A stretch of DNA of 34,800 nucleotides from Syntrophorhabdus sp. PtaB.Bin184 (GTDB lineage Bacteria > Desulfobacterota > Syntrophorhabdia > Syntrophorhabdales > Syntrophorhabdaceae), in NCBI GenBank assembly GCA_002067555.1, contig MVQQ01000011.1:1-34800 (forward strand). The letters are read 5' to 3'. The position numbers and the translations under genes were made by a program. The notes beneath the pieces are model-generated. The model made no database searches. It worked only from the letters and a program-made list of their open reading frames with translations, and had not been told where the DNA came from. The first letter of the stretch is position 1; the number at the start of each line of letters is the position of its first letter. Positions 3,607 to 34,580 of the stretch are shown piece by piece.

Positions 3607-3631
3607 GCATTCTCTTCTCTTCACAAAACCC

Positions 3632-3660: not shown

Positions 3661-3759
3661 GTGTCTGTTCAGGGGTTGAACAAATCAATGATCATCGCGA
3701 ATTTGCAGGGAGAGTTGCAACCTCAGTGGCGGTAGCCTGCCCGAAAATCAGAAATCCAC

Positions 3760-5623: not shown

Positions 5624-5633
5624 GGAGCCTGCG

Positions 5634-6104: not shown

Positions 6105-6160
6105 AGAGGAGAACCGCCATCAAACGGAAAATTCTATATATCAACGATCTTGTCAAAAAA

Positions 6161-7645: not shown

Positions 7646-7648
7646 GCC

Positions 7649-8233: not shown

Positions 8234-8253
8234 ACAGGGGGTAACACCAAACC

Positions 8254-9249: not shown

Positions 9250-9255
9250 GAGTCC

Positions 9256-11027: not shown

Positions 11028-11049
11028 AATACTTTCCGGGACAATACCA

Positions 11050-12718: not shown

Positions 12719-12761
12719 TTATCGCATCGGTCTGCAAAGGTTTAAAATAAAAGGAGGAGAC

Positions 12762-13427: not shown

Positions 13428-13454
13428 TCTCTGTTCAGACGATGGAGGTGACCT

Positions 13455-14504: not shown

Positions 14505-14543
14505 GATCTTTAAAGGGATGCGTTATCTCAGGCTGGTGATTCA

Positions 14544-15518
14544 ATGATTCTGATCGTTGGCGGGGCAGGGTATATTGGTTCCCATATTAACAAGTTGCTT
14601 AGCCGGAGGGGATACAGCACACTGGTTTTCGACAACCTTGTCTATGGTCACAGAGAATTTGCAAAATGGGGAGAATTTGTTCTGGGAGATCTTTGCGATC
14701 TGGATCAGATCAGGAGTTGTTTCGCGAAATACCCGATCGATGTTGTTGTGCATTGCAGTTCGTACGCCTATGTCGGCGAATCGGTCGTCAATCCGGCAAA
14801 ATACTATAGAAACAACATCATCAGTACGGTCAATCTTCTGGATGCTATGCTGGAACAGAACGTCAGTCAAATCATCTTTTCTTCCAGTTGCTCCACGTAT
14901 GGGATTCCAGAATCGGTTCCCATTATGGAAGACCACCCCCAGCATCCCGTCAACCCATACGGGAGAACAAAGCTTATTATAGAAGAAATGTTGAGGGATT
15001 ATGAAAGAGCTTATGGGATCAGGTCGGTTGTTTTGAGGTATTTCAACGCTGCCGGCGCTGACATTGACTGTGAGATAGGAGAAAAACACAATCCTGAAAC
15101 ACATTTGATACCCCTCGTTCTTGACGTTGCTCTGGGCAGGAAAACGGGAATTCAAATATTCGGAACTGACTACGATACACCGGATGGAACCTGTGTAAGG
15201 GACTATGTTCATGTGTCAGACTTGGCCGAGGCTCACCTCCTTGCGGTCGACTACCTGATGGGGGAGAATGATAGTATATCACTCAATCTGAGCAACGAAA
15301 AAGGGTTTTCGGTACGTGATGTGATCGCGAAGGTTGAAGCGGTTACGGGAAGACCGGTCAATAGTATTCCCATGGAGAGACGGGCGGGGGACCCGCCCGT
15401 TCTCATCGGATCGGCTGAAATGGCGAAAAGGGTGCTGGGCTGGAAACCCAGACTGAATGACTTGGGAGTGATTATTGAAACCGCCTGGAACTGGCATTTA
15501 GGGGCCATGGAAGAATAA
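14544..15518 (+). CDS. galE: UDP-glucose 4-epimerase
   Basis: ILIVGGAGYIGSH, SSSCSTYG, YGRTKLIIEEML, LRYFNAAGA and DGTCVRDYVHVSDLA form a typical GalE motif series. It is the first gene of the lower-GC block. Confidence 0.85.
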   Translation: MILIVGGAGYIGSHINKLLSRRGYSTLVFDNLVYGHREFAKWGEFVLGDLCDLDQIRSCFAKYPIDVVVHCSSYAYVGESVVNPAKYYRNNIISTVNLLDAMLEQNVSQIIFSSSCSTYGIPESVPIMEDHPQHPVNPYGRTKLIIEEMLRDYERAYGIRSVVLRYFNAAGADIDCEIGEKHNPETHLIPLVLDVALGRKTGIQIFGTDYDTPDGTCVRDYVHVSDLAEAHLLAVDYLMGENDSISLNLSNEKGFSVRDVIAKVEAVTGRPVNSIPMERRAGDPPVLIGSAEMAKRVLGWKPRLNDLGVIIETAWNWHLGAMEE

Positions 15519-15566
15519 CAGTCAATAGGTGCGGTTTCACAGGGCACCAAAAAAGGGAATAGCAGA

Positions 15567-16094
15567 ATGCCAGAAGACACAAACACGAATTCTCTGGGGC
15601 AGTATAGAAGTGCTTTGCAGACGGCGACTCTTGCCGCAGAACAGGGGAACACGGAGTTGGCGCTTGAAGTGATACAATGTGCCTTGAGGAAACTCTATCT
15701 GGAAAAGGATACTATCATAAACGATTCACATGACGAGGATGCTCAGGCAATCGATCTCATGCTCAATCAGAGATACCTGGAATACAGATCTAAGCTGGAA
15801 CCCAGGAGTCCCTACCTGAGTCTGGCCATCAAATCATTGATAATCGCTGCGATTGTGGTATCCGCGCTCCTCTTGACGGCAACGGTGGCGTTCAAGCAGA
15901 TGCGAAATGTCATGCACATTGCGGCCAGACATGTGGTTTCTCAAGAATTCAGAGAGAGCAAGGAACTCGTTGCCATAGTCAAATCAACCGCGGAGAAGGC
16001 TGTCGAACGAGCGCTCAGTGACGGGAGAGAGCGGACCTCCGTTGAGAATCAAGACGACGTGAAGGACGAGAAGAAACGAGTAAAAAAACGGTAG
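15567..16094 (+). CDS. Hypothetical single-pass membrane protein with acidic/Lys-rich C-terminal tail
   Basis: 175-aa ORF with one hydrophobic segment, LAIKSLIIAAIVVSALLLTATVAF, and a tail ending DDVKDEKKRVKKR. I recognised no family. Confidence 0.5.
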   Translation: MPEDTNTNSLGQYRSALQTATLAAEQGNTELALEVIQCALRKLYLEKDTIINDSHDEDAQAIDLMLNQRYLEYRSKLEPRSPYLSLAIKSLIIAAIVVSALLLTATVAFKQMRNVMHIAARHVVSQEFRESKELVAIVKSTAEKAVERALSDGRERTSVENQDDVKDEKKRVKKR

Positions 16095-16173
16095 AAAGCT
16101 GACCCATGCGTGTAATGGCGACCCTTGAGATCAGGGGACGGGAACCAAGAGCTAGAGGACCTGAGAGAAAGAG

Positions 16174-16884
16174 ATGAAGAAGGCGGACTGTCGAGAAAAA
16201 GTCGTGACAAAGGAACCCCAATATCAGCATCATCAAGACTTGAAGGAGAGGGAAGGGCTGAAGAAGCTTGGTTTGCGGGCGAACGCTCAATGGGACAATG
16301 ACCCAAGAATGTTGCTGATCGGTTTGGCGAGATACAAGTTCGCAGCGAAGATGCTGAAAGGCAAGAAAAGAGTATTGGAAATCGGTTGTGGAGACGCCTT
16401 TGGGACGCGATTGGTACAGCAGGAGGTAGAGTCGTTACATGCCATAGACTTTGATCCTGTTTTCGTGGATGATGTCAATGACCGAATGGATGAGAAATGG
16501 AAATTTGAGTGTATTGTGCATGACATCCTGAATTCTCCCGTTTCCGGGTCGTATGATGCTGCGTTCTCTCTCGATGTCATTGAACATATAGAGAAAAAAG
16601 ATGAGAGAACATTCTTGAGAAATATAGTCGCGTCGTTGGAAGAACCCGGGGTTTTGATCATAGGAACGCCTTCAATCGAATCTCAGGCATATGCAGCCCC
16701 TTTGAGCAAGATCGGACATATCAACTGCAAGGACGAGGTGGGATTGAGGAGCCTCTTGAAGGACTTCTTCCATGAGGTATTCATATTCTCCATGAACGAT
16801 GAAGTGGTGCATACAGGTTTCTATCACATGGCACACTATCTTTTTGCTATCTGTGTGGGAAAGAAAGCGATCGAAGAATCATGA
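16174..16884 (+). CDS. Class I SAM-dependent methyltransferase
   Basis: Motif I VLEIGCGDAFGTRLV, post-I AIDFD, and DAAFSLDVIEHI. Confidence 0.75.
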   Translation: MKKADCREKVVTKEPQYQHHQDLKEREGLKKLGLRANAQWDNDPRMLLIGLARYKFAAKMLKGKKRVLEIGCGDAFGTRLVQQEVESLHAIDFDPVFVDDVNDRMDEKWKFECIVHDILNSPVSGSYDAAFSLDVIEHIEKKDERTFLRNIVASLEEPGVLIIGTPSIESQAYAAPLSKIGHINCKDEVGLRSLLKDFFHEVFIFSMNDEVVHTGFYHMAHYLFAICVGKKAIEES

Positions 16885-17780
16885 CTGATCAGGGATACTT
16901 GAGCAACAACATAAAGAAGATCATCATCATTGGCCACAATGGATTCGTGGGCACACATCTGACAGACTTCTTTACCAGCGGTCTGGAAAAGGTGGAAGTG
17001 CTGGGTTTTTCCTTGCCTGATTTCGACCTCACGAAGAAAAGGGACTTGCGGAAACTGGCGAGGCTTCTTTCGGATGAAGTCGTTCTGATTGTCTGCGCTG
17101 CGATTAAACGACAGTTTGGGGACACCCTGGAAGCCTTTCAGAAAAATGTCGAGATACTCACCAATCTTTGCACCCTGTTGCGAGATAGGCCCGTGCGAAA
17201 CGTTGTGTATTTCAGTTCAGCGGCCGTATATGGCGAGGATGTCATTCATGGGACCATGTCGGAGATAACCCCGATCTGCCCGACATCATTCTATGGAATG
17301 GCGAAGTATGCATCCGAATGCATTTTGAGAAAGACCATCCATGAACACGGGAGTGGCAACCTGATCATACTGCGACCCACTCTCATATATGGCCCGGGTG
17401 ACCTGGGAGAGACCTACGGTCCAGCGGGTTTTCTGAAGAAAGCTTTGCGTAAGGATGTAATCACACTCTGGGGGGATGGAAACGAATACAGAGAGTTTAT
17501 CTATGTTGATGATGTGGTCCAGATCATCAACAGGTTGATCTTGTTAAACTACAGCGGAGTATTGAACGTTGTAGCCGGGAAAAGCTACACCTTCAAAGAT
17601 GTCATAGAAGAGATATCGAGATCCACAGGAGTTGAAATAGCCGTAACATCAAAGCCGAGAACGAAGCAAAAGGTGGACAATCACTTTGATAATTCACTCC
17701 TGTTAAGTACATTGCCCGATAGTCACAGTTTCGTGACGCTCGAAGAGGGAATCAAGAGGATGTTGGCTGCAGAGGGTTGA
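16881..17780 (+). CDS. NAD(P)-dependent epimerase/reductase (SDR), NDP-sugar type
   Basis: ATGA overlap with the upstream gene. Motifs IIIIGHNGFVGTHL, FSSAAVYG and YGMAKYASE (YxxxK). Confidence 0.75.
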   Translation: MTDQGYLSNNIKKIIIIGHNGFVGTHLTDFFTSGLEKVEVLGFSLPDFDLTKKRDLRKLARLLSDEVVLIVCAAIKRQFGDTLEAFQKNVEILTNLCTLLRDRPVRNVVYFSSAAVYGEDVIHGTMSEITPICPTSFYGMAKYASECILRKTIHEHGSGNLIILRPTLIYGPGDLGETYGPAGFLKKALRKDVITLWGDGNEYREFIYVDDVVQIINRLILLNYSGVLNVVAGKSYTFKDVIEEISRSTGVEIAVTSKPRTKQKVDNHFDNSLLLSTLPDSHSFVTLEEGIKRMLAAEG

Positions 17781-17805
17781 GTTCATTACCGTAACGGCGG
17801 AGAAT

Positions 17806-19008
17806 ATGAAGAGATGTGACGTTTGCCTGAGCGACAATGTTGTGGAGAAAGTTGATTTCGGTTTGCAGCCCATCTGCAATCGTTTCCTGACAAGAAGCGA
17901 CGCGGAGGAATCGAGGTTTCCCTTCGTGTTCGGACAATGCCAGGCCTGTGGGACAATGCTGAACCTGCATCGGGTCTCCGCCGCCGAATTGAGGCCGCCA
18001 TTCGAGTGGATAACCTACAATGAACCGGAAGGCCATCTGGACCACCTTTGTGAAGTGATATGCCGGTTGCCGGGATTGCATGCGGATTCCACTTTTTGCG
18101 GTGTCAGCTTCAAAGACGATACGTTGTTGGAGAGGCTGAAGAACAGAGGTTTCAGAAACACGTGGAGAATAGATCCGGCGCAGGATCTGGGAGTAGACGC
18201 GCCCGGTATTGGAGTTGAGACAGTCCAGGACCGTATCAACAGCCGCACGGCCAACATAATGACCGACAAATACGGGCGTGCGGACGTTGTCATTGCTCGC
18301 CATATTCTGGAGCACGCAAGCGATCCGGAGGTGTTCATCAATTCACTGTTGGAGCTTGCCAGGCCGGGTGGATACATGGTCATAGAGGTACCCGATTGTT
18401 CCGGCGCAATAGAGAATCATGATTACACAACCTTCTGGGAAGAACACTTCGTGTACTTTACCCCTCAGACGTTCAAAACCTTCTTCGGTGTTCGAAGACT
18501 GGTCATGCGGTACTATGAGTGCTTTGAGTATGCGTTCGAAAACTCCCTTGTTGGCATCGGGCAAAGAGGAGACATAAAGGATTCCTTCAACATGGACCAG
18601 AGCGCGGTGAAGGACGAGATCGACAGGACATCAAGATTTCTTTCGGATTATCCGGACGTGAAGAGGAGGACAAGAGGGTATTTCGCGGATCACTTGTCCT
18701 CTAAGGGCAAGACAGCGTTGTTCGGTGCTGGACATCTGGCTTGCACGTATATAAATCTTTTTCAACTTGAGGATCGCATTTCATTTGTCGCTGATGACAA
18801 CCCGAACAAGACGGGTCTTTTTATGCCAGGCTCGAGACTGCCGATCAAGCCGTCAAGTGCCCTTGTCGAGGAAGGTATCAAGCTTTGCTGCCTGAGTCTG
18901 AGTCCCGAGATAGAAGACAAGGTGATTGGAAAGAACAGTTCGTTTGTGCGCAGTGGTGGAGTTTTTGCTTCGATATTTTCGAGAAGCACGAGAGCGCTCA
19001 GAATATAG
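17806..19008 (+). CDS. C-methyltransferase-like protein (TylC3/NDP-hexose C-methyltransferase architecture, divergent paralog)
   Basis: N-terminal Zn-ribbon CDVC...CQAC, central HILEHASDPEVFINSLLELARPGGYMVIEVPD, and a C-terminal domain with FGAGHLACTY and VADDNPNKTGLFMPGSRLPI. The usual GxGxG motif I position reads CGVSFKDDT, which is degenerate. Confidence 0.65.
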   Translation: MKRCDVCLSDNVVEKVDFGLQPICNRFLTRSDAEESRFPFVFGQCQACGTMLNLHRVSAAELRPPFEWITYNEPEGHLDHLCEVICRLPGLHADSTFCGVSFKDDTLLERLKNRGFRNTWRIDPAQDLGVDAPGIGVETVQDRINSRTANIMTDKYGRADVVIARHILEHASDPEVFINSLLELARPGGYMVIEVPDCSGAIENHDYTTFWEEHFVYFTPQTFKTFFGVRRLVMRYYECFEYAFENSLVGIGQRGDIKDSFNMDQSAVKDEIDRTSRFLSDYPDVKRRTRGYFADHLSSKGKTALFGAGHLACTYINLFQLEDRISFVADDNPNKTGLFMPGSRLPIKPSSALVEEGIKLCCLSLSPEIEDKVIGKNSSFVRSGGVFASIFSRSTRALRI

Positions 19009-19022
19009 AAGGTGTTGACCAC

Positions 19023-19541
19023 ATGAAGATCAAAAGGATCAGTGACGAAGTCATCTATTGCGAGGATCAGATAGTGCTGGTGGACTATGAGGATATTCAG
19101 GGTCTGAAGGGGTCAGCCAGGCACAACGAGAGAAAGCGCGTGCGTATATGTGCCCATCGGGAAGAGACCGACAGACTGCACGAGATGATCATAGTCCACA
19201 CGAGAGACACGTATGTACGCCCTCACCGCCACTTCGGAAAGAGCGAGTCGTTTCTCATTATAGATGGACTGGCAAAGGTTCTTATCTTTAGCGATGATGG
19301 CAGCATCCAGAATGTGATCAATATGGGAGATTACCTGTCGAAGAGGACCTTTTATTATCGTATATGTGAACCCCTCTACCACACCCTTTTGATCGAATCG
19401 GACGTTATCGTTTTTCACGAGAGCACGAATGGACCTTTCAACAGAGGTGATAACGATTTCGCTCCCTGGTCACCCGACGAAAAAGACTCCGCGGCATGCA
19501 GCAACTACTTGAGTAAACTTCACAAACAGATCAGGGCTTGA
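19023..19541 (+). CDS. WbuC-like cupin-fold protein
   Basis: ATG 19023. The pattern RVRICAHREETDRLHEMIIVH...RPHRHFGKSESFLIIDG fits the cupin His/Glu pattern of WbuC-type proteins found in O-antigen loci. Recognition from memory only. Confidence 0.55.
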   Translation: MKIKRISDEVIYCEDQIVLVDYEDIQGLKGSARHNERKRVRICAHREETDRLHEMIIVHTRDTYVRPHRHFGKSESFLIIDGLAKVLIFSDDGSIQNVINMGDYLSKRTFYYRICEPLYHTLLIESDVIVFHESTNGPFNRGDNDFAPWSPDEKDSAACSNYLSKLHKQIRA

Positions 19542-19566
19542 CCACAATGTCACTTTGAGGTGGATA

Positions 19567-20808
19567 ATGGATAAATCTCATTACATTCGAACAACATGCA
19601 GACTATGTGGTGACAGCAACATCAACACCGTTTTGATGCTTGCTCCCACGCCGCCCGGTGATCACTACGTTAAGGTGGACGGTCTGAAAGACAAGCAGGA
19701 GGATTACCCGTTATATCTCATACAATGCGCCAATTGTGGTAATGTTGAACTGCCCGTCGTAGTGAACCCGGAGATTCTCTACGGCAAATACATTTACGAG
19801 ACATCCATTTCTCTGGGACTGGTTGAACATTATCGGACTTACGCTGACGAGATCGTTGCCTTTGCTCAACCACGCCCGGGGTCGTTGGTGATCGATGTGG
19901 GAAGCAACGATGGCACATTACTGAGGGCTTTTCAGGCGAAGGGCTTTCGTGTCCTGGGGGTTGATCCGGCGAAGGACATAGCGGCGAAGGCAACGAATTC
20001 GGGCGTATTTACGATCCCTTCCTTTCTTACCGGAGGTCTGGCACTGGACATCACTAAAGAACACGGTCACGCCTCGCTCGTGACTGCGAACAACGTGATG
20101 GCGAATATAGACGATCTTGACGATTTTGTCACTTCGATCAGAAACCTTCTTGAACCGAATGGACTATTTGTGTTCGAATCAGGGTATCTGGCCGATCTGG
20201 TGAAGCATACGATCATTGATAACATTTACCACGAGCATCTCAGTTACTTCTCCGTGAGACCTCTGATATCCTTTTTTCAACGCAACGGCTTGGAGCTTAT
20301 ACATGTTATTCACAATCCAAGCAAGGGGGGATCGATCAGGGGTATCGTCCAGTTGGAGGGAGGGGGAAGACCCGTTCTGGATTCGGTGGGGCGACTGGTT
20401 GGGTCGGAAAACGAGTCCGGTCTTGGCAGACCCGAGGTGTACAGAGAGCTTTCCGAAAAGGTCAAGAGAGAAAAGCAGGGGTTGCTTGACCTGGTGCGTA
20501 GTTTGCGCGGGGAAGGAAAACGGATCGCTGGTTACGGTGCTTCAGTTGGTGTTACCACGCTCATCCATTTCCTTGAGATCAGCGACCTGATCGATTGTAT
20601 TTTTGACGACAATCCGATTCGAGACGGACTATTCACGCCAGGCCACCATATCCCGGTATTCAGTTCGGATAAGGTGTATGAGAAGCTGCCCGATTACATA
20701 GTCAATTTTGCCTGGAGATACACAGACCCCATACTGCAAAGGCATAAAAAGTACGTAGCCAATGGTGGAAAATTCATTGTTCCCCTGCCGGAAATACGAG
20801 TGATCTAG
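19567..20808 (+). CDS. NDP-hexose C-methyltransferase (TylC3 family), canonical paralog
   Basis: Zn-ribbon CRLCGD...CANCGN, SAM motif I VIDVGSNDGTLL, NIYHEHLSYFS and GGSIRG. The C-terminal domain has GYGASVGVTTL and FDDNPIRDGLFTPGHHIPV. I chose ATG 19567 over the upstream TTG 19555. Confidence 0.8.
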   Translation: MDKSHYIRTTCRLCGDSNINTVLMLAPTPPGDHYVKVDGLKDKQEDYPLYLIQCANCGNVELPVVVNPEILYGKYIYETSISLGLVEHYRTYADEIVAFAQPRPGSLVIDVGSNDGTLLRAFQAKGFRVLGVDPAKDIAAKATNSGVFTIPSFLTGGLALDITKEHGHASLVTANNVMANIDDLDDFVTSIRNLLEPNGLFVFESGYLADLVKHTIIDNIYHEHLSYFSVRPLISFFQRNGLELIHVIHNPSKGGSIRGIVQLEGGGRPVLDSVGRLVGSENESGLGRPEVYRELSEKVKREKQGLLDLVRSLRGEGKRIAGYGASVGVTTLIHFLEISDLIDCIFDDNPIRDGLFTPGHHIPVFSSDKVYEKLPDYIVNFAWRYTDPILQRHKKYVANGGKFIVPLPEIRVI

Positions 20809-20829
20809 AACGCGAGACGGACCAACGAT

Positions 20830-21888
20830 ATGGATCATCCTCTAAAAATCGGTTTTGTTGGGGCAGGCTTCATGGGTCAACTGGCTCACATCGCAAATTA
20901 TGCCGAGTTGAACAAATGTCGCACCGTGGCACTGGCAGAGCTGAGGCCGGGCCTCCGAGAACTGGTTGCACGACGTTATGGTATCGACAAGACCTATGCC
21001 ACCCATGCGGAACTTCTGGCGGATTCTAATGTGGACGCCGTAGTTGCTGTAACACAACGCTTTCTGACAGGTCCAATTGCGCTCGATTGCCTGAGGGCAG
21101 GGAAGCACGTTCTGACTGAGAAGCCCATGGCTTCCACATACGAGCAGGCAACAACACTCGTGGAAACCTCCAGGGAAGCAGGAACGGTGTACGCGGTGGG
21201 TTACATGAAACGGTACGATACCGGTGTTAGAAAGGCCAAGGGCATTCTGGAATCCCTGCTGGTATCAGGCGAGTTGGGACCCGTCAGGTATGTACGCTCC
21301 CATTGTTTTGGAGGAAACGCTTACTGTAACATTGGTGGGCATCTGACTACAGGCGAAGCTTTCGAGTATGAACTGCCTCGCTGGCCCATCGCGCCGGCTT
21401 GGGTTCCGGAGGGTTTGAAGAAGGAATATGAGCGGTTTCTCAACACGTATTGCCACAACATCAACCTGCTCAGGTTTCTGGTCGGCTCAACCCTGAAAGT
21501 CACCTCGGTATCATTTAACGGTCAGGCCGAATGGGTGATCATACTCGACGCCGGGGATTATAACGTTCTCCTGGAAACGGGGAATTACGCGTATCATGGT
21601 TGGGATGAGGTTACGGAGATATATTTCTCCAACGGCAGGCTCCGCATATCCACTCCGCCACCCTTGCTTAGGGGTGTACCCGCTCACATAGAGATATATC
21701 AAAGCGGGCAGGAGCATAACCTGAGCTCCCCGTATTCGGCTTGGTCCTGGTCGTTCAGAAATCAGGCAGAAGCTTTCGTTGATGATATCTGCAACGGCAG
21801 AGGATCAATATCAAGCGGGGAAGACAGCCTTGAAGATATGCGATTGGTGGAGGATATCTGGCGAACGTATCTTACTGGACAACAATAA
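20830..21888 (+). CDS. Gfo/Idh/MocA family oxidoreductase
   Basis: N-terminal Rossmann KIGFVGAGFMGQLAH and the family motif LTEKPMAS. Confidence 0.8.
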   Translation: MDHPLKIGFVGAGFMGQLAHIANYAELNKCRTVALAELRPGLRELVARRYGIDKTYATHAELLADSNVDAVVAVTQRFLTGPIALDCLRAGKHVLTEKPMASTYEQATTLVETSREAGTVYAVGYMKRYDTGVRKAKGILESLLVSGELGPVRYVRSHCFGGNAYCNIGGHLTTGEAFEYELPRWPIAPAWVPEGLKKEYERFLNTYCHNINLLRFLVGSTLKVTSVSFNGQAEWVIILDAGDYNVLLETGNYAYHGWDEVTEIYFSNGRLRISTPPPLLRGVPAHIEIYQSGQEHNLSSPYSAWSWSFRNQAEAFVDDICNGRGSISSGEDSLEDMRLVEDIWRTYLTGQQ

Positions 21889-21911
21889 CCGGATGGAGGA
21901 AGGGGAGTTAG

Positions 21912-23048: not shown

Positions 23049-23128
23049 CCGGGACGGATTCGATGCCAGGCGCGCGGAGTATCCCAAGAAAGCGACCGCC
23101 GGCAGTGTCTGCGGGAAAATGTGAGTGA

Positions 23129-23746: not shown

Positions 23747-23789
23747 CTGAGGACAAGATGCTCTGCCAGCTGTTTGCCCGATCGTCTGG

Positions 23790-26582: not shown

Positions 26583-26653
26583 TTCACCGGTTTCCATGAG
26601 AAAGGGCGCGACGGATCGTATTTAAAAGACTCAAGGCGATATTGGGGTATTAT

Positions 26654-27616
26654 ATGAACACCAGCGTTTCGAATGACCCGGAGTATTCAATTATCATTCC
26701 CATCTACAATGAGGAGGAGGTGTTACCCTCATTGCTGCCGGAGATCGTCGAGAGGATGGATGCGCTCGGCAGGGCGTACGAAGTCGTTGTCATTGATGAT
26801 GGGAGCACCGACGGTTCGTGGAACATACTGCAGTCGTTCGCGGCACAGTATGGGAGCCTCGAGGCTTACCGGCTACTGAGGAATTTCGGTCATCAAAAAG
26901 CGTTGTATTCGGGATTGCATGTGGCGAGAGGAAAGGCCATTGGAGTCATGGATGGCGATGGTCAGGATCCTATAGAGGTGCTAATAGAGATGTTTGACCT
27001 CTGGGGCAGGGGCTATGATGTTATCTACGGAGTACGAAGGAAAAGGAAAGAAAACATTCTCAAGAAGTCATCCTACTTCATCTTCTATCGCTTGTATAGA
27101 AGAATGGCAAATATTGATATTGCGTTAGACAGCGGCGACTTCTGCGTAATGGACAGAAAGGTTGTGGATTTCATTGTTGCGCTGCAGGATTCCTCTCCTT
27201 TTATAAGGGGACTGAGGAGTTGGTATGGTGGCAGGCAACTGGGACTCGAATATGATCGTCTTGCCAGGCAGAAAGGCGAGCCGAAATACACCCTGTTCAA
27301 GCTCATCGACCTTGCGATCAATGGCTTAACGTCTTTCTCCAAGGAACCTCTGCGCTGGGCGGTCTACTTCGGCGGAGCAGTTTCCGTGTTTACCTTCATA
27401 TTCCTGGCTGCGATTGTGATAGCGAAGCTCTGCTTCAATTATCCCGAGAGCAGTATCAGCGCGGGTTGGGCTTCCGCGATCTCGTTGACGAGTTTCATAG
27501 GAGGAGTCAATATAATGCTGCTCGGCCTTATAGGCGAGTATATCATGCATATATTTGAATCTGTCAAACACAGACCAGCGTTTCTCATCCAAGAATCCAC
27601 AAGAAAGGACAATTGA
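26654..27616 (+). CDS. GT2 polyprenyl-phosphate glycosyltransferase (GtrB/CsbB/DPM1-like)
   Basis: YSIIIPIYNEEEVL, VVVIDDGSTDGS, the DxD region GVMDGDGQDP, and two C-terminal TM helices (WAVYFGGAVSVFTFIFLAAIVIA and SFIGGVNIMLLGLIGEYI). An alternative TTG start lies at 26642. Confidence 0.8.
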   Translation: MNTSVSNDPEYSIIIPIYNEEEVLPSLLPEIVERMDALGRAYEVVVIDDGSTDGSWNILQSFAAQYGSLEAYRLLRNFGHQKALYSGLHVARGKAIGVMDGDGQDPIEVLIEMFDLWGRGYDVIYGVRRKRKENILKKSSYFIFYRLYRRMANIDIALDSGDFCVMDRKVVDFIVALQDSSPFIRGLRSWYGGRQLGLEYDRLARQKGEPKYTLFKLIDLAINGLTSFSKEPLRWAVYFGGAVSVFTFIFLAAIVIAKLCFNYPESSISAGWASAISLTSFIGGVNIMLLGLIGEYIMHIFESVKHRPAFLIQESTRKDN

Positions 27617-27625
27617 ATTATCGAT

Positions 27626-28363
27626 ATGGATAAGGAAAGATTGATACAATACGACTGGCTGAGCAAGAACCATTGGTGGATCACGAGCAAGTATAAATTA
27701 CTCCGGGACCTGATGACACACAATATCCCGAAGAGCGTGAAGCTTACCCGTATGCTGGATATCGGTTGTGCAACGGGTATCTTTCTTGGCCACATTAAGG
27801 ATACGGTGAAGGATCAATTCGGCATGGACCTGAACCAGGAGATCCTCTATTACATGCAGGACAGCCATGTTCCGGTAGTGGCTAGCAACGCGAAGGCCCT
27901 GCCTTTTAAGAATGAAACGTTCTCATTCATATCGGCAATTGATATTCTCGAACACGTTGATGATGACGTAAAGGTGCTTGAAGAATGTAATCGCGTTCTG
28001 GGTCTCAATGGCTGGCTACTGATATCTGTGCCCGCCTTTAGGGTTCTTTTCGGGAAGCACGACGAATGCTTCGGTCACTACAGAAGGTATTCCAGGCGCG
28101 AAATGGTACAGAAGCTGAGAAGCTCCGGCTTTCGGGTGGAGAAGGCGACGTATGTTCAACCATTCTTCTTTGTCCCCCTGTTGCTGAAGAGGCGCCTTTT
28201 TCCGCCAAAGGACTCCTTGTTCGGCGACTTTGGCAGGCCGAATCCCATTGTCAACAGGATACTTCACAATCTGTTGTCATCGGAGCGGTACTTCGTCAGG
28301 TATTTCAACTTTCCAATAGGAAGTACGCTATTTGTTCTGGCGTCCAAGGGTTCCGACTCCTAA
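27626..28363 (+). CDS. Class I SAM-dependent methyltransferase (Methyltransf_11-like)
   Basis: Motif I MLDIGCATGIFLGH, FSFISAIDILEHV and NGWLLISVP. Confidence 0.75.
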   Translation: MDKERLIQYDWLSKNHWWITSKYKLLRDLMTHNIPKSVKLTRMLDIGCATGIFLGHIKDTVKDQFGMDLNQEILYYMQDSHVPVVASNAKALPFKNETFSFISAIDILEHVDDDVKVLEECNRVLGLNGWLLISVPAFRVLFGKHDECFGHYRRYSRREMVQKLRSSGFRVEKATYVQPFFFVPLLLKRRLFPPKDSLFGDFGRPNPIVNRILHNLLSSERYFVRYFNFPIGSTLFVLASKGSDS

Positions 28364-28412
28364 TCCCAGGTGTTCAAATGCAGATAGCCGATCATTTTAG
28401 TAAGGTACCAAT

Positions 28413-29564
28413 ATGAGTTACTTCAACATATCCGAGAAATTCAGACTGGCGAGAAGCATCATCACAAAGGGATTTCCCCTCTATGTACAGTTCTACATTA
28501 CATCTCGTTGTAACTTGTCCTGCCAGCAGTGCAACATAATCTATTCATACGCCGACATACCGGAGATGAATATCGATCAGATAAGGGCGGTCGCGAGGAA
28601 TCTCCGCCGTATTGGAACATCGATCGTGCTCCTTATAGGAGGGGAACCGTTTGTTCGTAAAGACCTTGCCGATATCATCCGAGTTTTCTCCGAGGCAGGG
28701 ATACACGTTCGAATGCAAACCAACGGTTTTGCCACGCGCAAGCGTCTCCAGGACTGCGTTGACGCGGGCGGCAAGGACATAAGCATATCTCTGGACACTC
28801 TTAAGCCGGAGAAGCAAGACTTGATCAATGGTGGTTTCAACAAATCCTTTATTCGGGCCATGAGAGCGGTCGCGGATGTGAACGATATATTCCCGGAAGA
28901 TGGAACGGCCTTCTTTGGGACCGTCCTGATGCCCCATAATCTGGACGATATTACCAAGGTGATAAAGTTTGCCACAAGGATAGGATGGGGAGTATCGCTT
29001 GTCCCGGTCCATACTTCATCTCAGAATAGACCCATGGGATTCAGGGCCTATGATGATTCGCTCCTCTTCCAGAAATCACAGTACGCAAGGGTAGCGGAAG
29101 TGCTCGAAGAATGCCGACGCTTGAGAAACAATGGGTACTTGCTGTACGATTCGGATGAATACCTTAAGGACATATACAGATTTGTTGTTGGAAAGGAGAT
29201 TGAGTGGCGCAGAAGGAATGGCGGCGTTTGTGACAGTCCCAATCTGTATTTTGCCATAGAACCGGACGGGAGCATTGCGCCATGTTGCGATTTCAGACTC
29301 CAAAGAAGGATCCCGGTCTATGACGACAGGTTTCCCGAATGGTTTGAAGATGGCATTATCCACAAAGAGATCTATGAAATTACCAGCAAATGCCAGGGTT
29401 GTCTTTTTGGCAGTTATCCGGAAATGACGATATCGGCTCGCTATGTAAGGCCACTGGTAGACAGGGCTAAATATTTCCTGAAGGATTACGAGAAACTGAA
29501 AAAGCTGACGATGGAAGAGATCATTCAAATAGCATTTGAAATCGAGAAGGAAGATAAGGTCTGA
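28413..29564 (+). CDS. Radical SAM enzyme with Cys-rich (SPASM/twitch-like) C-terminal region
   Basis: CxxxCxxC cluster motif SRCNLSCQQCN (28509-28532), and GGEPF in LLIGGEPFVRKD. The C-terminal cysteines are GVCDSP...IAPCCDF...KCQGCLFGSYPE. I saw no cobalamin-binding domain. Confidence 0.8.
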   Translation: MSYFNISEKFRLARSIITKGFPLYVQFYITSRCNLSCQQCNIIYSYADIPEMNIDQIRAVARNLRRIGTSIVLLIGGEPFVRKDLADIIRVFSEAGIHVRMQTNGFATRKRLQDCVDAGGKDISISLDTLKPEKQDLINGGFNKSFIRAMRAVADVNDIFPEDGTAFFGTVLMPHNLDDITKVIKFATRIGWGVSLVPVHTSSQNRPMGFRAYDDSLLFQKSQYARVAEVLEECRRLRNNGYLLYDSDEYLKDIYRFVVGKEIEWRRRNGGVCDSPNLYFAIEPDGSIAPCCDFRLQRRIPVYDDRFPEWFEDGIIHKEIYEITSKCQGCLFGSYPEMTISARYVRPLVDRAKYFLKDYEKLKKLTMEEIIQIAFEIEKEDKV

Positions 29565-29570
29565 ATGTAG

Positions 29571-30485
29571 ATGAACCTTTCAAAGGCGTTATTGCACTCG
29601 CTGCTCAGACGAATTGCCGACATCCCTCCGATGAAACTTCATGAGACCTTGAGAAGAGAGATCATGGACAGTCTTCGCGTGGAGAATGACAAGGAAACCT
29701 TCACCGTGACCTGGGTAAACAAGGGAAAGGAGATGTCGAGAAAGTATCCTGTGGGCTATTTTCTTTTCTATGTCAGGGGGGATAGACCGGAAGACGGTCC
29801 GGCAGATAGGACTGTTTACGAAACAAACGACAGGCACCTGGCCGAGATAACGAACGAGATCTGTGACGGCGAAACAAACCTATCGCCCGATACGGACGCG
29901 GAGACACGAAAGAGCGCGAGAATGTTTGAGATACGCTATGTTTGGGCGCTGATCATTTCGGTTGCCTATTTGGTATCCGGTCATGCTTCCCCGCTTGCAC
30001 CCGCGTTCTGCTACCTGGTCTTTTTTGTTCTTTTCGAACAGAGCGTCATTACGTGGATCGTGCCCGCCCTGATTGGTACAATTCTCTTACAGTTTGTTCA
30101 TCTTCATTTCACCTCCTATTTAGGGTTGATCGTGTTGATGCTGGCGGAAATGAAGTCACCGAAAACGCGAATTAGCCATTTCGCGCTCTTGGTGACGGTG
30201 ATGGCTTATTTTGTGGCCGGATTGTTTTGGCAGGACATCGAAGTGGCGCACTTTAGAGAGTTCTGGTGGTTCCTGCCCGTAGGTTTTTTGTTTCCCGTCA
30301 GCACGTTGTTTACCGGTTTGAACCTGCGCGTCAGCACTTATGTTATCCCCCTGGTGGCTGTTGGCATTATTCTGGATGGCTGGCTGCTCTTCGGCATCAT
30401 ACTTCTCCTGATATCAGGTGCAGGGTTGTTCGCTGTGGGTGCCAGGACATACGCACCAGGCGTGTCGAGAGGCGCGAAGAGATAA
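29571..30485 (+). CDS. Hypothetical membrane protein: ~120-aa soluble N-terminal domain plus ~6 predicted TM helices
   Basis: 304-aa ORF starting 7 nt after the radical SAM stop. Hydrophobic segments start from YVWALIISVAYLV. I recognised no family. Confidence 0.55.
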   Translation: MNLSKALLHSLLRRIADIPPMKLHETLRREIMDSLRVENDKETFTVTWVNKGKEMSRKYPVGYFLFYVRGDRPEDGPADRTVYETNDRHLAEITNEICDGETNLSPDTDAETRKSARMFEIRYVWALIISVAYLVSGHASPLAPAFCYLVFFVLFEQSVITWIVPALIGTILLQFVHLHFTSYLGLIVLMLAEMKSPKTRISHFALLVTVMAYFVAGLFWQDIEVAHFREFWWFLPVGFLFPVSTLFTGLNLRVSTYVIPLVAVGIILDGWLLFGIILLLISGAGLFAVGARTYAPGVSRGAKR

Positions 30486-30491
30486 TGTTCA

Positions 30492-31214
30492 ATGGTCAAT
30501 AACAGGATTATATCCGGGATACTGTACAGGCTTAGGGATGTCAGGATCTCGGAAGTGTACCGTGCGATCGACAGGTACTGCAGGGGACGCGTGCTTGATG
30601 TAGGCGGTCGTGACTTTTATATGCGTGTGCGAAACAGGAGACTTGAGATTTCATCATGGACGACGTGCGACATATCCACCGATTACAAGCTGACCATGGA
30701 TGACGGGATATACTCGTTTGTTGTGGGAGACGGATGCTCATTGGAGTATGACAATGAGACCTTTGACACAGTTATCAACATGCAGGTCCTGGAACATGTC
30801 TTTGAACCTATTAGGATGTTCACGGAGATCGCGAGGGTCTTGAAAAAGGGAGGGCATGGGGTATTCCTGATCCCCCAGACTTCGACGCTGCATTACGCGC
30901 CCAACCATTATTACAATTTCACGAGGTTCTGGGTCGAGAAGGCGGCTGAAATGTCGGAGATGGAGGTTATTGAACTGATACCCTTGGGAGGAGCCTGGTC
31001 TACAATGGCTTCCCATCTCTTTTCGTTGGTTTTCCAGGCCATGAATGCCGGGGGGATGAGGGTCAGGGAGTACAGGAGAAATGCGTTCTTTTTCGTGCTG
31101 TTCCCATTTATGCTTTTATATGTCGTTGTGAACATACCGATCCTGCTGTTGTTCAGTCTCGGCGATCTGCAGGAAGGTGCCAACAATCATCTCCTGGTGG
31201 CGAGAAAGCGCTGA
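30492..31214 (+). CDS. Class I SAM-dependent methyltransferase with C-terminal membrane anchor
   Basis: VLDVGGRDFY and FDTVINMQVLEHVFEP...LKKGGHGVFLIP. The C-terminal hydrophobic region has WSTMASHLFSLVF and AFFFVLFPFMLLYVVVNIPILLLFSL. Confidence 0.7.
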   Translation: MVNNRIISGILYRLRDVRISEVYRAIDRYCRGRVLDVGGRDFYMRVRNRRLEISSWTTCDISTDYKLTMDDGIYSFVVGDGCSLEYDNETFDTVINMQVLEHVFEPIRMFTEIARVLKKGGHGVFLIPQTSTLHYAPNHYYNFTRFWVEKAAEMSEMEVIELIPLGGAWSTMASHLFSLVFQAMNAGGMRVREYRRNAFFFVLFPFMLLYVVVNIPILLLFSLGDLQEGANNHLLVARKR

Positions 31215-31243
31215 CCGGGTATCCTCCAGAAAGCAGGTTCGCG

Positions 31244-31894
31244 TTGATAAGAAGGGTGTTGAGTCAAGAAAATCTCCCGAGACTCTGGTATCTCTACCAG
31301 AAGGTTGCCGGTTTCATCTTCGGAGGGAACGGTGCTAAGAAAGACATTGTACGGAATTTGTACGGGGGTGAGACAGAGCTACTGGAGATAGGATGTTCCG
31401 TAGGCCTCATCGCAGAACATTTTCTGAACATCGAGAACGTTCGATATACGGGAATAGATATAGACGGTAAAGCCATCGATGTGGCAAAAGAACGATTTGC
31501 CGGCAAAGACAATTTCCGTTTCTTTTGTGAGTCGATCAGTTCGTTCAAGAACAACAGTGACAGGCTGTTCGATGTTGTAATGATATTCGGGATGTTGCAT
31601 CATGTCGAAGACAGCGTGGCGCAGGAGTTGTTGCCGGATGTCGTGTCACTGCTGAGCGAGAGAGGAAGGGTTGTCATTTACGATCTCTTGGAGCCGGAAG
31701 AGAATGGAAGCCTGCTGGCAAAGATTATCGTCAAACACTTCGAACGAGGCAGGAATCTCAGGAAATCCTCGGATTTCAAGGAATTGATTCAAAAGAGCCT
31801 TCCGCTGGATCTCGTTCACTACAGGGTTATCCCGGTTACTACTTGCCTCGGATATCCCGTGGCGTCGTACTTCGTTGAGGCTGTCTTCACGTAG
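31244..31894 (+). CDS. Class I SAM-dependent methyltransferase
   Basis: Motif I LLEIGCSVGLIAEHF, GIDID, and FDVVMIFGMLHHV. TTG start, with an alternative GTG at 31256. Confidence 0.7.
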   Translation: MIRRVLSQENLPRLWYLYQKVAGFIFGGNGAKKDIVRNLYGGETELLEIGCSVGLIAEHFLNIENVRYTGIDIDGKAIDVAKERFAGKDNFRFFCESISSFKNNSDRLFDVVMIFGMLHHVEDSVAQELLPDVVSLLSERGRVVIYDLLEPEENGSLLAKIIVKHFERGRNLRKSSDFKELIQKSLPLDLVHYRVIPVTTCLGYPVASYFVEAVFT

Positions 31895-31976
31895 CCTTCA
31901 TACATATTCTTGGTCCCCCCACCCGTTTCCACAAGGCATGTACCGGACGCAGTCCGTGGACCGATGGTAGGATAAT

Positions 31977-34580
31977 TTGAAGAAGAGTGGTGAATATCGA
32001 CTCCTCAAAGTGTTGCCTGTGGCAGCGTTCTTTGTGTACATCTTCTATCTGAGCTATTCCTTTCACGATCGAGATCACATGAATCTCGACTATGCTTTCT
32101 TCTATGACAACTTGTGGTACTTCCATGATCGTTTGAAACAAGGTTCATTCGCTCTGTGGAACCCTTTTAACATACTGGGCAAACAGGCAGTGTACGGAAA
32201 TGCCATCAGTGTGTCGATCTTCACCCCTCTGCTTCACTTCATCGGCGTTACGCTGAGCAGTTTTCATTTCATACATATCGCAGGAACGTTCTTGGCTCTG
32301 ACGTCGGTTTATGTCGCAGCCAGAGTGTTGGGTTACGACCGGTATTACTCCTTTCTTCCGATGATCGTGTTGTTGACGGGGGGATACCGCTATTATATCT
32401 CCTATGACCATCTGGCCACCTTCCTATTCCTGTATCCTATAGCCATAGCTGCACTGCTGCGCTTTATGTTGCACGACGATAACATCGTCAAATTAGACAG
32501 GTATCTGGCGGTCTCGCTCCTGTTGTCCTTGGCGTTCCTCGGATTGAGAGTTGAACTCCAGGTATACGCGTATGTTTTCATATTCATAGTCTTTGCCGTT
32601 TACGGACTCTATTCTCCCGTGGGAAGGTTGTCGCAGGGAAAGGCGTGGGTGAAATACGCACTGTTCTGTTCCGGTGTAATAATCACAGTTTTACTGGCAA
32701 ACGTTTTTCAACTCCCTCTGCTTGCGAATTCAATGAGGGAGAACTCCAGGATCTCCGGGGCCATAGGCTACCACATTCTGCTCGACAGAATGTACATTAG
32801 ATACTTGATCGTAAGTGTCATCAATCAGCCTTGTCTCGTTGCCTCGGTGGTGTTCTTCCTCATGTCCAGGAAGATCACTACCGACCGGTTCAGCGGGAGA
32901 ACGGTGTTCGTCGCTTCAATGATAGCCGGTTTGGCCTTCGTGTTGATACTAGCGTACAAGACCTCTATGGGCAGTCTCATGTCTGTCGCTTATAAAAGCA
33001 CAGGGGTCTGTGTGGTTATAGCGATGGTGTCATCTTCAATAAAAAGGAGCCTGAGCCCCGCAGTCGCCTTATTGTATTCAGCGGTGTCGTTCCTGGGTTT
33101 ATATGTGACCGACTATTCCGCTGAGCATTGGATCGTCAATCGCGACGCGCATAATTTCTTCATGAATCCTTTCCTGGCGGGATTCATGGTCCTTGGTTCG
33201 TTGAACCTGTATCTGAAAAGCCGCACCTGGTTGTTGATCGTGCTGGCGGCGTTTCATTTTGTTGGCGAGTCTGTTGTCTTTCTTTCATACTACCTCCTTG
33301 GGATCCCATGGTTGGCGAGCAGAGCGTCAATAATGGAGTTGCCTGTCCAGACAGTCATTATCATGGAGTCTTTCTTGTTCTGCGTGCGGATGGCCGGGAA
33401 TGCTCCCGATTTGTTAATGAATTTCAGAGTGTTCGCCCGCGCGACCAAAGGAAGGTCGGTCGCCGTCCTGTTGTCTATTAAAAGGAACACGGCGAGAATG
33501 GCCGGTTTCGCTTGTATTGTGATGGCGTTTCTCTTGATCAAACCGGTGTTGATACCTTTTGACGGTAACGCGCAGAAATATGTCAAGTGTTTTCCATTTT
33601 CCGAGAACCCGTCCTTTGTTATCAATGAATGGCAGAACGAAGCGGTTAGGGTTTCTCAGGAGATTCGCGGGTCAAGGACGGGGGTGAATCCTCTGAAGCG
33701 GGTCAGGATAGAGGATGACGTCTTGTCATTTGCCGTTGATAGGATGGCCTATCGTTATCTGCCAACATATTCGAAGGTGCTCAATACTGCTCCCATTTGG
33801 ACCTCGGAGTTTCCCGTTTCCTTTATGGAGATCATGAATGCGTCAAGCGCTGTACCGGATAGGATCAAGGGGTTCACTCTTCCTCACGCCGAGCTCAGTC
33901 CGTTGGTCCAGGGTTTCTTCTACAAGTATTGGACTGCGCGCGGAATGAAGGGTAAAGACTTCATGTCACTCAATACTTACCTGGACGACGTATTGATCTT
34001 GCCACACAAGAACGACGACATCGTTCTAAGGGAGATCATGGCAGAGGAAGGCTCACAGACAAACAGAGCCTTCGTCTCAGACAGGGTGGTTGTTCTTGGA
34101 AATCAAAGAGATGAATATGCGTATCTGAAGGACCACCTCGAGGCAGGTGGCAGGCTCCAGGAGTGGATCACAACGTCGGATCACGCATTCCGCGGCGATT
34201 TTGGGGAGGACATTCATAAGAATCTCCCGCTGCGATCAGAGACGATCTTTGAGGAGGATTCTCCCGAAAGGGTCGTAATACGGGCCAAGACCAACAAGGA
34301 GTCATTCCTTGCGCTGATGGACACCTTCAGTTCAGGGTGGAAGGCCCACGTTAATGGGGTTGAGGCCAGAGTGTACAGGGGGTACCTTGGCACGAGATTT
34401 GTTCATCTTCAGCCGGGAACAAGCACCGTTGTCTTCGAATACTCCCTCGCCGGGTTACGAACGTGCATGATAGCGTCTTTGTGTGTTTGGATACTGTTGA
34501 TAATACTAGGGATTGTACGTGTCGTGAGGGGAAGGCTGTCCAGGAGATGCGCCCGGCTTGCCGCAGAAGATGAGACTTGA
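31977..34580 (+). CDS. Large polytopic membrane protein, YfhO-like (putative GT-C fold glycosyltransferase), paralog 2
   Basis: 867 aa with a TTG start after GGTAGGA. Its first loop DYAFFYDNLWYFHDRLKQGSFALWNPFNILGK parallels paralog 1. The C-terminal FSSGWKAHVNGVEARVYRGYLGTRFVHLQPGTSTVVFEYS is followed by a terminal TM helix. Confidence 0.6.
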   Translation: MKKSGEYRLLKVLPVAAFFVYIFYLSYSFHDRDHMNLDYAFFYDNLWYFHDRLKQGSFALWNPFNILGKQAVYGNAISVSIFTPLLHFIGVTLSSFHFIHIAGTFLALTSVYVAARVLGYDRYYSFLPMIVLLTGGYRYYISYDHLATFLFLYPIAIAALLRFMLHDDNIVKLDRYLAVSLLLSLAFLGLRVELQVYAYVFIFIVFAVYGLYSPVGRLSQGKAWVKYALFCSGVIITVLLANVFQLPLLANSMRENSRISGAIGYHILLDRMYIRYLIVSVINQPCLVASVVFFLMSRKITTDRFSGRTVFVASMIAGLAFVLILAYKTSMGSLMSVAYKSTGVCVVIAMVSSSIKRSLSPAVALLYSAVSFLGLYVTDYSAEHWIVNRDAHNFFMNPFLAGFMVLGSLNLYLKSRTWLLIVLAAFHFVGESVVFLSYYLLGIPWLASRASIMELPVQTVIIMESFLFCVRMAGNAPDLLMNFRVFARATKGRSVAVLLSIKRNTARMAGFACIVMAFLLIKPVLIPFDGNAQKYVKCFPFSENPSFVINEWQNEAVRVSQEIRGSRTGVNPLKRVRIEDDVLSFAVDRMAYRYLPTYSKVLNTAPIWTSEFPVSFMEIMNASSAVPDRIKGFTLPHAELSPLVQGFFYKYWTARGMKGKDFMSLNTYLDDVLILPHKNDDIVLREIMAEEGSQTNRAFVSDRVVVLGNQRDEYAYLKDHLEAGGRLQEWITTSDHAFRGDFGEDIHKNLPLRSETIFEEDSPERVVIRAKTNKESFLALMDTFSSGWKAHVNGVEARVYRGYLGTRFVHLQPGTSTVVFEYSLAGLRTCMIASLCVWILLIILGIVRVVRGRLSRRCARLAAEDET

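Follow-up and report, generated by a model that had tools for sequence, protein, structure and literature searches.

Here we analysed a 34,800-nt stretch of contig MVQQ01000011.1, called the window throughout, from an uncultured bacterium of the Thermodesulfobacteriota that is related to Syntrophorhabdus. It carries a methyltransferase-rich block of 18 genes between positions 14544 and 34580. This block is the low-GC, variable portion of a surface-glycan locus of approximately 36 kb, spanning from window position 3760 to about 5 kb beyond the window end. With slightly better than even confidence, and on the basis of sequence comparisons, we read the locus as a composite of a conserved branched-sugar pathway and a strain-specific cassette for the transfer of a lipid-linked sugar. 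The genes from 16174 to 23048 are the 3' half of a cross-phylum nucleotide-sugar pathway which begins upstream at approximately 5496. The region 23129-34580 is a strain-specific cassette, which probably transfers a lipid-linked sugar to a target at the cell surface. A family 2 glycosyltransferase (GT2) of the polyprenyl-phosphate type and YfhO proteins are the sole recognisable transfer machinery of the block, and the locus is not a classical Wzx/Wzy- or ATP-binding cassette (ABC)-dependent O-antigen or capsule locus. A preliminary description of this DNA, made from the sequence alone, had viewed the 18 genes as one dedicated system starting at 14544. This view had to be given up, as 16174-23048 belongs with the upstream genes, the first two genes of the block represent an indel and 23129-34580 forms the cassette. 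All window genes named below are encoded on the + strand, and numbers attached to gene names give protein lengths in amino acids (aa).

The composite structure became visible by comparing gene neighbourhoods across genomes. The 18-gene block did not recur as a unit, and its two halves were found differently distributed. The nearest GTDB genome is a metagenome-assembled genome (MAG) labelled uncultured Syntrophorhabdus sp. (Thermodesulfobacteriota; locus L021), with proteins 75-94% identical and in the same order. This locus and the related loci L018, L019 and L020 have a common gene order, in which a GmhA-like gene is followed by genes for a short-chain dehydrogenase/reductase (SDR331), a transketolase split into N and C halves, a HAD-like protein, an APH-like kinase, a methyltransferase (MT221) and a Zn-dependent alcohol dehydrogenase (ADH). 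In the window the genes from SDR331 to Zn-ADH occupy 8254..14504 (Pfam, NCBIfam). The C-methyltransferase (C-MTase) part comes next, with MT236, SDR299, C-MTase400, a cupin of 172 aa, C-MTase413, a Gfo/Idh/MocA oxidoreductase of 352 aa (Gfo) and MT378 (16174..23048; Pfam, NCBIfam and PDB matches), and the syntenic orthologues are 69-86% identical. A Microcoleus genome (L022) holds C-MTase413, SDR299, C-MTase400, cupin, Gfo, a dehydratase-class SDR, a NUDIX protein and a GmhA-like protein in one cluster at 46-56% identity. An Omnitrophica MAG (L023) carries the kinase, both transketolase halves (N, then C), MT221 and the ADH in the order of the window at 41-51% identity, with an orthologue of C-MTase413 adjoining.

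Scanning metagenomes with a C-MTase400 alignment yielded 266 relatives. Among the loci retrieved, the 41 with a length of 8 kb or more, anchored on the C-methyltransferase, served as comparison set. Homologues of the cupin were found in 39 of the 41 loci, of SDR299 in 35, C-MTase413 in 32, MT221 in 31 and Zn-ADH in 26. The transketolase N and C halves were present in 20 and 18 loci, the kinase in 19, the HAD protein in 17, and the GmhA-like and HldE-like proteins in 13 each. A GT2 of 267 aa encoded downstream of the window (GT2-267) had homologues in 12 loci. Not one locus contained a homologue of the cassette proteins YfhO930, GT2-324, MT205, MT245, TM304, MT240, MT216 or TM867, and a single one held a radical S-adenosylmethionine (SAM) homologue of 25% identity. 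Gene orders across the 41 loci showed strong synteny. The natural unit is therefore approximately 5496-23048, which a start at 14544 splits. The same data support the link to an upstream heptose-like module that the preliminary description had proposed, since relatives and numerous metagenome contigs keep this module together with the C-methyltransferase genes in a single syntenic cluster. A plasmid search with the 400-aa C-methyltransferase gave nothing above 25-27% identity. The Omnitrophica locus (945-19287) shows a different elaboration of the same core, with the transketolase/methyltransferase/ADH triad followed by a radical SAM/SPASM protein, an aminotransferase, a formyltransferase, a GLF-type mutase and two to three C-methyltransferase genes.

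The boundaries within the block were defined by the close relatives. GalE, which passed its equivalog model (TIGR01179, 415 bits versus a cutoff of 262), and a protein of 175 aa containing a single hydrophobic segment are encoded at 14544..16094. Both genes were found in the window and L021 only and are missing from L018, L019 and L020; the pair thus constitutes an indel when compared with some of the close relatives. DNA identity of L018 to the window is 93% up to 14503 and 81% from 16207 on. This identity drop, the missing GalE/175-aa genes and a fall in GC content at the same place mark the 14504/14544 boundary as a recombination mosaic. A minus-strand gene in L002 and L003 had suggested an alternative junction upstream of GalE and was rejected, as these contigs are truncated, their DNA is identical to the window and the antisense gene call is spurious. 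At the other end, the gene for a 170-aa membrane protein lies directly 3' of MT378 in L018, L020 and L021, while its homologue in the window strain is located just past the window end. The 11.5 kb of 23129-34580, absent from these three loci, are therefore an insertion relative to them. No direct or inverted repeats of at least 9 nt were found flanking it. At the variable position the relatives encode related polytopic membrane proteins without Pfam family instead of the cassette (498 and 599 aa at L020 9073-12467; 528 aa at L021 15987-17573; at least 385 aa, reaching the contig end, at L018 14397-15554). A YfhO-like gene at the variable position of L021 (17583-19976) is split into 439 and 333 aa, by a frameshift, as a pseudogene or through an assembly error.

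The cassette starts with a class I SAM methyltransferase of about 202-205 aa (MT205, 23129..23746; Pfam 48.9 bits) and the polytopic membrane protein YfhO930 (23790..26582). Its conserved core, as judged from homologous gene arrangements, is a quartet at 26642..30485 encoding GT2-324, MT245, a radical SAM enzyme of 383 aa and the membrane protein TM304 (PDB matches and synteny). GT2-324 (from 26642) matched GtrB sll0501 (5EKP) with 204 bits and ArnC with 141 bits, both over its full length, and has hydrophobic C-terminal segments at residues 237-298. By these criteria it is classified as a GtrB/ArnC-type polyprenyl-phosphate GT2 with C-terminal transmembrane helices. The radical SAM enzyme (from 28413) has its CX3CX2C motif in residues 33-40 and a further five cysteines in the C-terminal part. 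It belongs to a large, well-conserved family with at least 1668 members at E <= 1e-20, whose identities in several phyla are 54-65%. Its structural model has a predicted local distance difference test score (pLDDT) of 91, with BlsE as best fold match and SkfB, MoaA, SuiB, viperin and DesII about equal. TM304 (29571-30485) gave an AlphaFold model with a pLDDT of 83.6. It had no match in Pfam, NCBIfam, PDB sequences or PDB folds (best fold E-value 0.37), so that structure prediction, suggested earlier for the unassigned proteins, delivered a confident model here without a fold assignment. TM304 belongs to a family of 26 representatives with uniform length; these membrane proteins of about 300 aa align end to end at 19-25% identity.

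Outside this species the quartet was detected in three unrelated loci. Its four genes are adjacent in L104, at 51% (GT2), 51% (methyltransferase), 65% (radical SAM) and 28% (membrane protein) identity, with DUF2079 and PMT_2 proteins close by. The same quartet occurs in L105 (Bacteriovoracales), directly downstream of a GalE-like SDR and with DUF6798 present, and in L106 (Elusimicrobiota) close to PMT_2, an aminotransferase and an acetyltransferase. In these contexts the methyltransferase has about 245-270 aa and the membrane protein about 285-300 aa. Downstream of the quartet the window cassette continues with two class I methyltransferases of 240 and 216 aa (30492..31894; Pfam) and ends with a divergent second YfhO-like membrane protein of 867 aa (TM867, 31977..34580).

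Both YfhO-family proteins are predicted from profile comparisons to be GT-C glycosyltransferases. YfhO930 scored 57.5 bits with Pfam YfhO (cutoff 28.5), was aligned by hhalign to eight Pfam-YfhO proteins with a probability of 100 over 693 columns, and possesses about 14 or more hydrophobic segments. Very few relatives were found among 5.8 billion proteins, distant homologues stand in unrelated contexts, and a GTDB genome scan gave no matches. TM867 had no Pfam hit; gene callers start it at 32010, resulting in 856 aa. Its C-terminal 90 residues match YfhO with a probability of 96.6. A wider YfhO profile found it with an hmmsearch E-value of 1.3e-21, covering the N-terminal domain with a WNP motif and the C-terminal domain, and an hhalign probability of 98.2 over 727 columns. 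In another locus, L015 (CAZXQS010000020.1, sharing its accession prefix with the L021 MAG contig; 879-11724), a YfhO-family gene (P0004) is located between genes for a prepilin-type N_methyl protein and a small methyltransferase, and secretin, T2SSE and T2SSF genes come after it, which hints that YfhO enzymes of this lineage may glycosylate pilins.

Neither Wzx, Wzy, Wzz, an ABC transporter, a WecA/WbaP-type initiator nor a GT-B was found in any open reading frame (ORF) of the window by Pfam and NCBIfam. Likewise, no initiator, flippase or ABC exporter, polymerase or chain-length regulator appeared in the precomputed Pfam assignments of the six genes that follow within 5.5 kb of the window end. 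The preliminary description had noted this lack, together with one lipid-carrier-type GT2 and two YfhO-like proteins in the block, and both statements held, the latter with PDB, Pfam, hhalign and profile support. The end of the block at 34580, given in the same description, did not. The locus runs on with membrane proteins of 175 and 172 aa, GT2-267, a NUDIX protein, SDR348 and Acyl_transf_3 before a gene on the opposite strand is reached, as seen from metagenome contigs of several sequencing runs, which carry identical proteins and extend the locus past the window. The two small downstream proteins (L007 14379-15464) are paralogous, with two to four N-terminal membrane helices, a soluble C-terminal domain and no family match; the first of them stands directly 3' of MT378 in the close relatives (L018 13497-14009; L020 8328-8840; L021 15258-15770).

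The other gene assignments of the preliminary description were largely reproduced. All 18 ORFs between 14544 and 34580 are real and co-directional, and 8 of the 18 genes matched Pfam models for SAM methyltransferases. The scores were 45.5 bits for the gene at 16174 (Methyltransf_25), 56.5 bits at 27626, 45.9 bits at 30492 (Methyltransf_11) and 52.3 bits at 31244, in addition to MT205. The weakest methyltransferase, at 21912, was borderline with 28.6 bits versus a cutoff of 27 (Methyltransf_23). Three Pfam domains were found in each of the two C-methyltransferases: Methyltransf_13, Methyltransf_23 and Methyltransf_14 gave 37.9, 40.8 and 48.2 bits for the protein at 17806 (C-MTase400) and 51.9, 69.3 and 147.7 bits for that at 19567 (C-MTase413, 19567-20808). 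The latter aligned over its full length to MtmC (4rv9, 281 bits), TcaB9 (222 bits) and the sugar 3-C-methyltransferase 5t64 (214 bits), the former to MtmC (93 bits, full length). These alignments assign the TylC3/TcaB9-type three-domain architecture to both, as had been proposed. A ninth methyltransferase upstream of the block, at 12762, was confirmed with 64.9 bits. Since pairwise identity among the methyltransferases is at most 33%, they are not recent duplicates, and recent duplication was ruled out as their source. At an assumed background of 2-5% methyltransferase genes, which is our own estimate, the probability of finding at least eight in 18 genes by chance is 1e-9 to 1e-6. The 240-aa methyltransferase (30492) has a C-terminal hydrophobic anchor with a segment at residues 195-227. 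The radical SAM enzyme, GalE, the SDR at 16881 (299 aa), the Gfo/Idh/MocA oxidoreductase at 20830 (352 aa) and the cupin were each confirmed by family models. The cupin belongs to WbuC/DUF6016 (TIGR04366, 134.5 bits) and its real start is at about 19023, the gene being 19023-19541 (172 aa). A literature search for WbuC returned papers on resistance plasmids only.

The upstream genes contain enzyme families of the ADP-heptose pathway, matched at family level and none at equivalog level according to the model scores. The probable first gene of the locus (3760..4653) encodes an unusual fusion of regulator and enzyme, consisting of an exopolysaccharide (EPS)-associated MarR-type winged helix-turn-helix (TIGR04176, 123.6 bits versus a cutoff of 88) and a GmhB-like HAD-IIIA sugar-phosphate phosphatase (152 and 128 bits, both under the equivalog cutoffs). 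It is followed at 4643..8233 by a GSU2086-family protein, a stand-alone RfaE-domain-II-like nucleotidyltransferase (approximately 5631-6104) as the second one of the locus, an HldE-like bifunctional protein (6161-7645) with reversed domains, i.e., nucleotidyltransferase before PfkB kinase, and the GmhA-like SIS isomerase (NCBIfam, Pfam). Scores versus equivalog cutoffs were 82 versus 209 bits for GmhA, 175 versus 521 for HldE and 152 versus 178 for GmhB; the heptose epimerase model, representing the HldD role, reached 79 versus 275 bits.

The absence of RmlA/RmlB-type enzymes for the supply of a keto sugar, another point of the preliminary description, was correct within 14544-34580, and Pfam, NCBIfam and a motif check found no RmlB-type enzyme in the entire window. 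SDR348, approximately 2.4 kb past the window end, had dTDP-glucose 4,6-dehydratase as best NCBIfam match (113 bits), with LegB, UDP-xylose synthase and ArnA also matching, all below cutoff. On these similarities it is assigned to the C4-oxidising dehydratase/decarboxylase class. Its homologues are found within the C-methyltransferase module of L022, L033 and L035. Together with the two upstream nucleotidyltransferases, SDR348 weakens the argument that the supply of the keto sugar is missing.

From this gene content we infer substrates, order of steps, topology and acceptor as follows. Overall, sugars would be tailored in the cytoplasm, loaded onto polyprenyl phosphate and transferred in the periplasm by the YfhO enzymes. 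In the conserved pathway a sugar phosphate would be converted to a nucleotide sugar, and a keto intermediate would arise via SDR348 or the Gfo/Idh/MocA enzyme. The two TylC3/TcaB9-class enzymes would then C-methylate it, plausibly at both carbons flanking the keto group, which is the simplest proposal for the presence of two C-methyltransferases. Epimerisation by the WbuC cupin, reduction by SDR299 and O-methylation may complete the sugar. In their combination of C-methyltransferase, cupin, SDR-type reductase and oxidising enzyme, the genes resemble branched-sugar pathways of the mycarose/noviose type. In the cassette, GT2-324 would load a sugar on polyprenyl phosphate, the UDP-hexose possibly being provided by GalE. 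The methyltransferase and the radical SAM enzyme of the quartet may edit this sugar before loading or in its lipid-linked form. For flippase or scaffold TM304 is the best candidate. Both YfhO GT-C enzymes would take sugars from the lipid carrier and attach them in the periplasm to a protein or to a glycan already in place. GT2-267 co-occurs with the conserved cluster, which GT2-324 does not, and is thus the likelier transferase for the branched sugar; two lipid-linked donors would then be served by two GT-C enzymes. Precedent for such a route exists. In CsbB/YfhO a GT-A-type enzyme makes an undecaprenyl-phosphate-linked sugar, and the YfhO GT-C enzyme transfers it outside the cytoplasm to teichoic acids (PMC5836110). 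Pgf and GtrB/PgtC2 use the same route, with Ser/Thr-rich proteins as acceptor of Pgf (PMC5856776; 10.1101/2024.05.05.592596). On this precedent of GT2 plus YfhO the cassette is therefore read as a system of the three-component type.

We are aware of a number of findings that weigh against this composite reading. No recognised flippase (GtrA, ArnE/F, MATE, Wzx) was detected in any ORF by Pfam/NCBIfam, and the candidates are limited to TM304 and the two small downstream membrane proteins. Membership in class I does not by itself mark a methyltransferase as sugar-acting. The fold matches of the radical SAM enzyme do not discriminate either, with template modelling scores of about 0.58 to BlsE, SkfB, MoaA and SuiB alike, and searches of PDB sequences and folds failed to separate sugar-acting from peptide-acting enzymes. 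The three outside contexts of the quartet are a small number. Concerning the branched sugar, the motif of 4,6-dehydratases is absent from all three SDRs of the window. The heptose-type proteins do not reach the equivalog cutoffs of NCBIfam, which leaves room for a starting sugar other than sedoheptulose 7-phosphate, and the set of transketolase, kinase, HAD and ADH is given no role by the proposed scheme. Concerning its delivery, the YfhO profile detected no protein in any of the 41 related loci. The large membrane ORFs of the ten related metagenome loci that were checked had no YfhO-profile match and, except for one ABC exporter, no Pfam family. Finally, GT2-267 shows weak likeness to ArnC (34 bits) and DPMS (25 bits).

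Alternative explanations were weighed against the same data. That the apparent lack of assembly machinery is deceptive seems unlikely, though it deserves consideration: the GT-C proteins might polymerise from polyprenyl-phosphate monosaccharides outside the cytoplasm, like in mycobacterial arabinan and mannan, or the classical genes might be located elsewhere in the genome. Two GT-C proteins and two GT2s would suit such a polymer, as would the EPS-type MarR regulator at the head of the locus, the ABC exporter in one related metagenome locus and the other large polytopic proteins without assigned family which relatives hold at the same position. In Pgf, moreover, two YfhO enzymes appear to act sequentially (10.1101/2024.05.05.592596). 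However, the search over 40 kb of this strain detected no initiator, polymerase, chain-length regulator or exporter, and the YfhO enzymes characterised in the cited literature add single sugars to existing acceptors. All 18 genes acting as one dedicated system, with a single heavily C-/O-methylated sugar installed via one GT2 and two YfhO proteins, would agree with the co-directional tight packing, the uniformly low GC content from 14.5 kb on and the unusual methyltransferase density. We consider this quite improbable, as 16174-23048 travels with the upstream genes in many lineages without homologues of YfhO, GT2-324 or the cassette methyltransferases, the quartet is found elsewhere without C-methyltransferase genes, and the GT2 accompanying the conserved pathway is GT2-267, which lies beyond the window end.

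Alternatively, the methyltransferases of the cassette, the radical SAM enzyme and TM304 could have a small molecule as substrate, or a lipid such as the polyprenyl carrier or one of the membrane lipids, and would be connected to the glycan genes by linkage only. The generic nature of the class I methyltransferase matches and the membrane anchor of one of these enzymes agree with this, and the radical SAM enzyme scores alike to tetraether lipid synthase, MoaA and PqqE-type enzymes. We nevertheless regard this explanation as highly improbable. In four of four contexts the methyltransferase and radical SAM genes lie directly beside a GtrB-like GT2, with PMT_2 nearby in two of them and YfhO in the window; a GalE-like SDR adjoins in one context, and an aminotransferase and an acetyltransferase of the sugar-tailoring type in another.

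Under the composite reading, the cassette resembles the three-component systems (GtrA/GtrB/GtrV, CsbB-GtcA-YfhO, GtlA-GtlB, ArnC-ArnE/F-ArnT, PPPRS-MATE-GT136) in its GtrB/ArnC-type GT2, its YfhO GT-C proteins and the lack of classical assembly genes. ArnD is one example of an auxiliary enzyme which modifies the donor in a system of this type. Epimerases are another precedent for such donor-diversifying enzymes, known from three-component systems of Gram-negative O antigens (PMC11127046). Unlike these systems, the cassette has no recognisable flippase and two very divergent YfhO proteins, and its GT2 is conserved together with a methyltransferase, a radical SAM enzyme and a membrane protein whose fold has no PDB match, a combination which was not found described in the searched literature. 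Furthermore, the YfhO systems characterised in the cited literature come from Firmicutes, while the host here belongs to the Thermodesulfobacteriota. The Streptococcus mutans Pgf system (PgfS, PgfM1, PgfE, PgfM2) likewise combines a GT-A type GT2, a UDP-hexose 4-epimerase and two membrane proteins with YfhO domains (PMC5856776). Nevertheless, the equivalog test for Pgf failed. GT2-324 had PgfS as best NCBIfam match at 202.7 bits versus a cutoff of 500, and PgfM2 and PgfM1 reached 23.6 versus 1500 and 20.9 versus 1400 bits. In the window the corresponding genes are non-contiguous with GalE in a separate indel, no gene for an adjacent Ser/Thr-rich adhesin was seen, and Pgf has no counterpart to the eight methyltransferases and the radical SAM enzyme.

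For the conserved pathway, the three-domain C-methyltransferases aligning full length to MtmC, TcaB9 and the 5t64 enzyme connect it to mycarose/noviose-type pathways. In contrast to these, the conserved module carries two C-methyltransferases, no RmlA/RmlB pair and no 2,3-dehydratase. It is linked to the SIS isomerase, HldE-like protein, split transketolase, kinase, HAD and ADH, and stands in a surface-glycan locus of environmental bacteria instead of an antibiotic cluster. The ADP-heptose pathway (GmhA, HldE, GmhB, HldD) is represented upstream by the same families, conserved together with the C-methyltransferase module, but with sub-equivalog scores, the reversed HldE-like order, the GmhB-MarR fusion, one more nucleotidyltransferase, kinase and phosphatase each, and a split transketolase of its own.

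With regard to the general layout, intergenic gaps do not exceed 115 bp across the whole + strand array from 3760 to 34580 of the window. GC content is 0.56 before approximately 14.5 kb, where it drops to 0.49, and stays uniformly low downstream of that point. Scanning the window for promoters and terminators gave signals no higher than shuffled controls, and neither Rfam families nor tRNAs were found in it.

In the searched literature, whose coverage lacks most subscription journals, we found neither a characterised counterpart of either module nor a characterised locus that shares the gene order, in agreement with the preliminary description, which knew of no matching locus layout. The transfer logic is known, while no description seems to exist of the co-conserved radical SAM enzyme and methyltransferase as an editing set, or of the pathway with two C-methyltransferases and a transketolase. 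A bolder reading, which we put forward tentatively and with clear reservation, would see two undescribed, widespread glycan modules joined here: one for a double-C-methylated, possibly higher-carbon sugar, and one for radical and methyl editing of a polyprenyl-phosphate-linked sugar before GT-C transfer, with the protein of about 300 aa as a new flippase family. If our interpretation is true, an anaerobic and syntrophic bacterium of the Thermodesulfobacteriota makes use of extracytoplasmic glycosylation of the YfhO type, and two modules common in environmental metagenomes encode sugar chemistry without a characterised example. Both modules provide search markers for branched and methylated sugars in uncultured bacteria and are defined enough for tests with recombinant enzymes.

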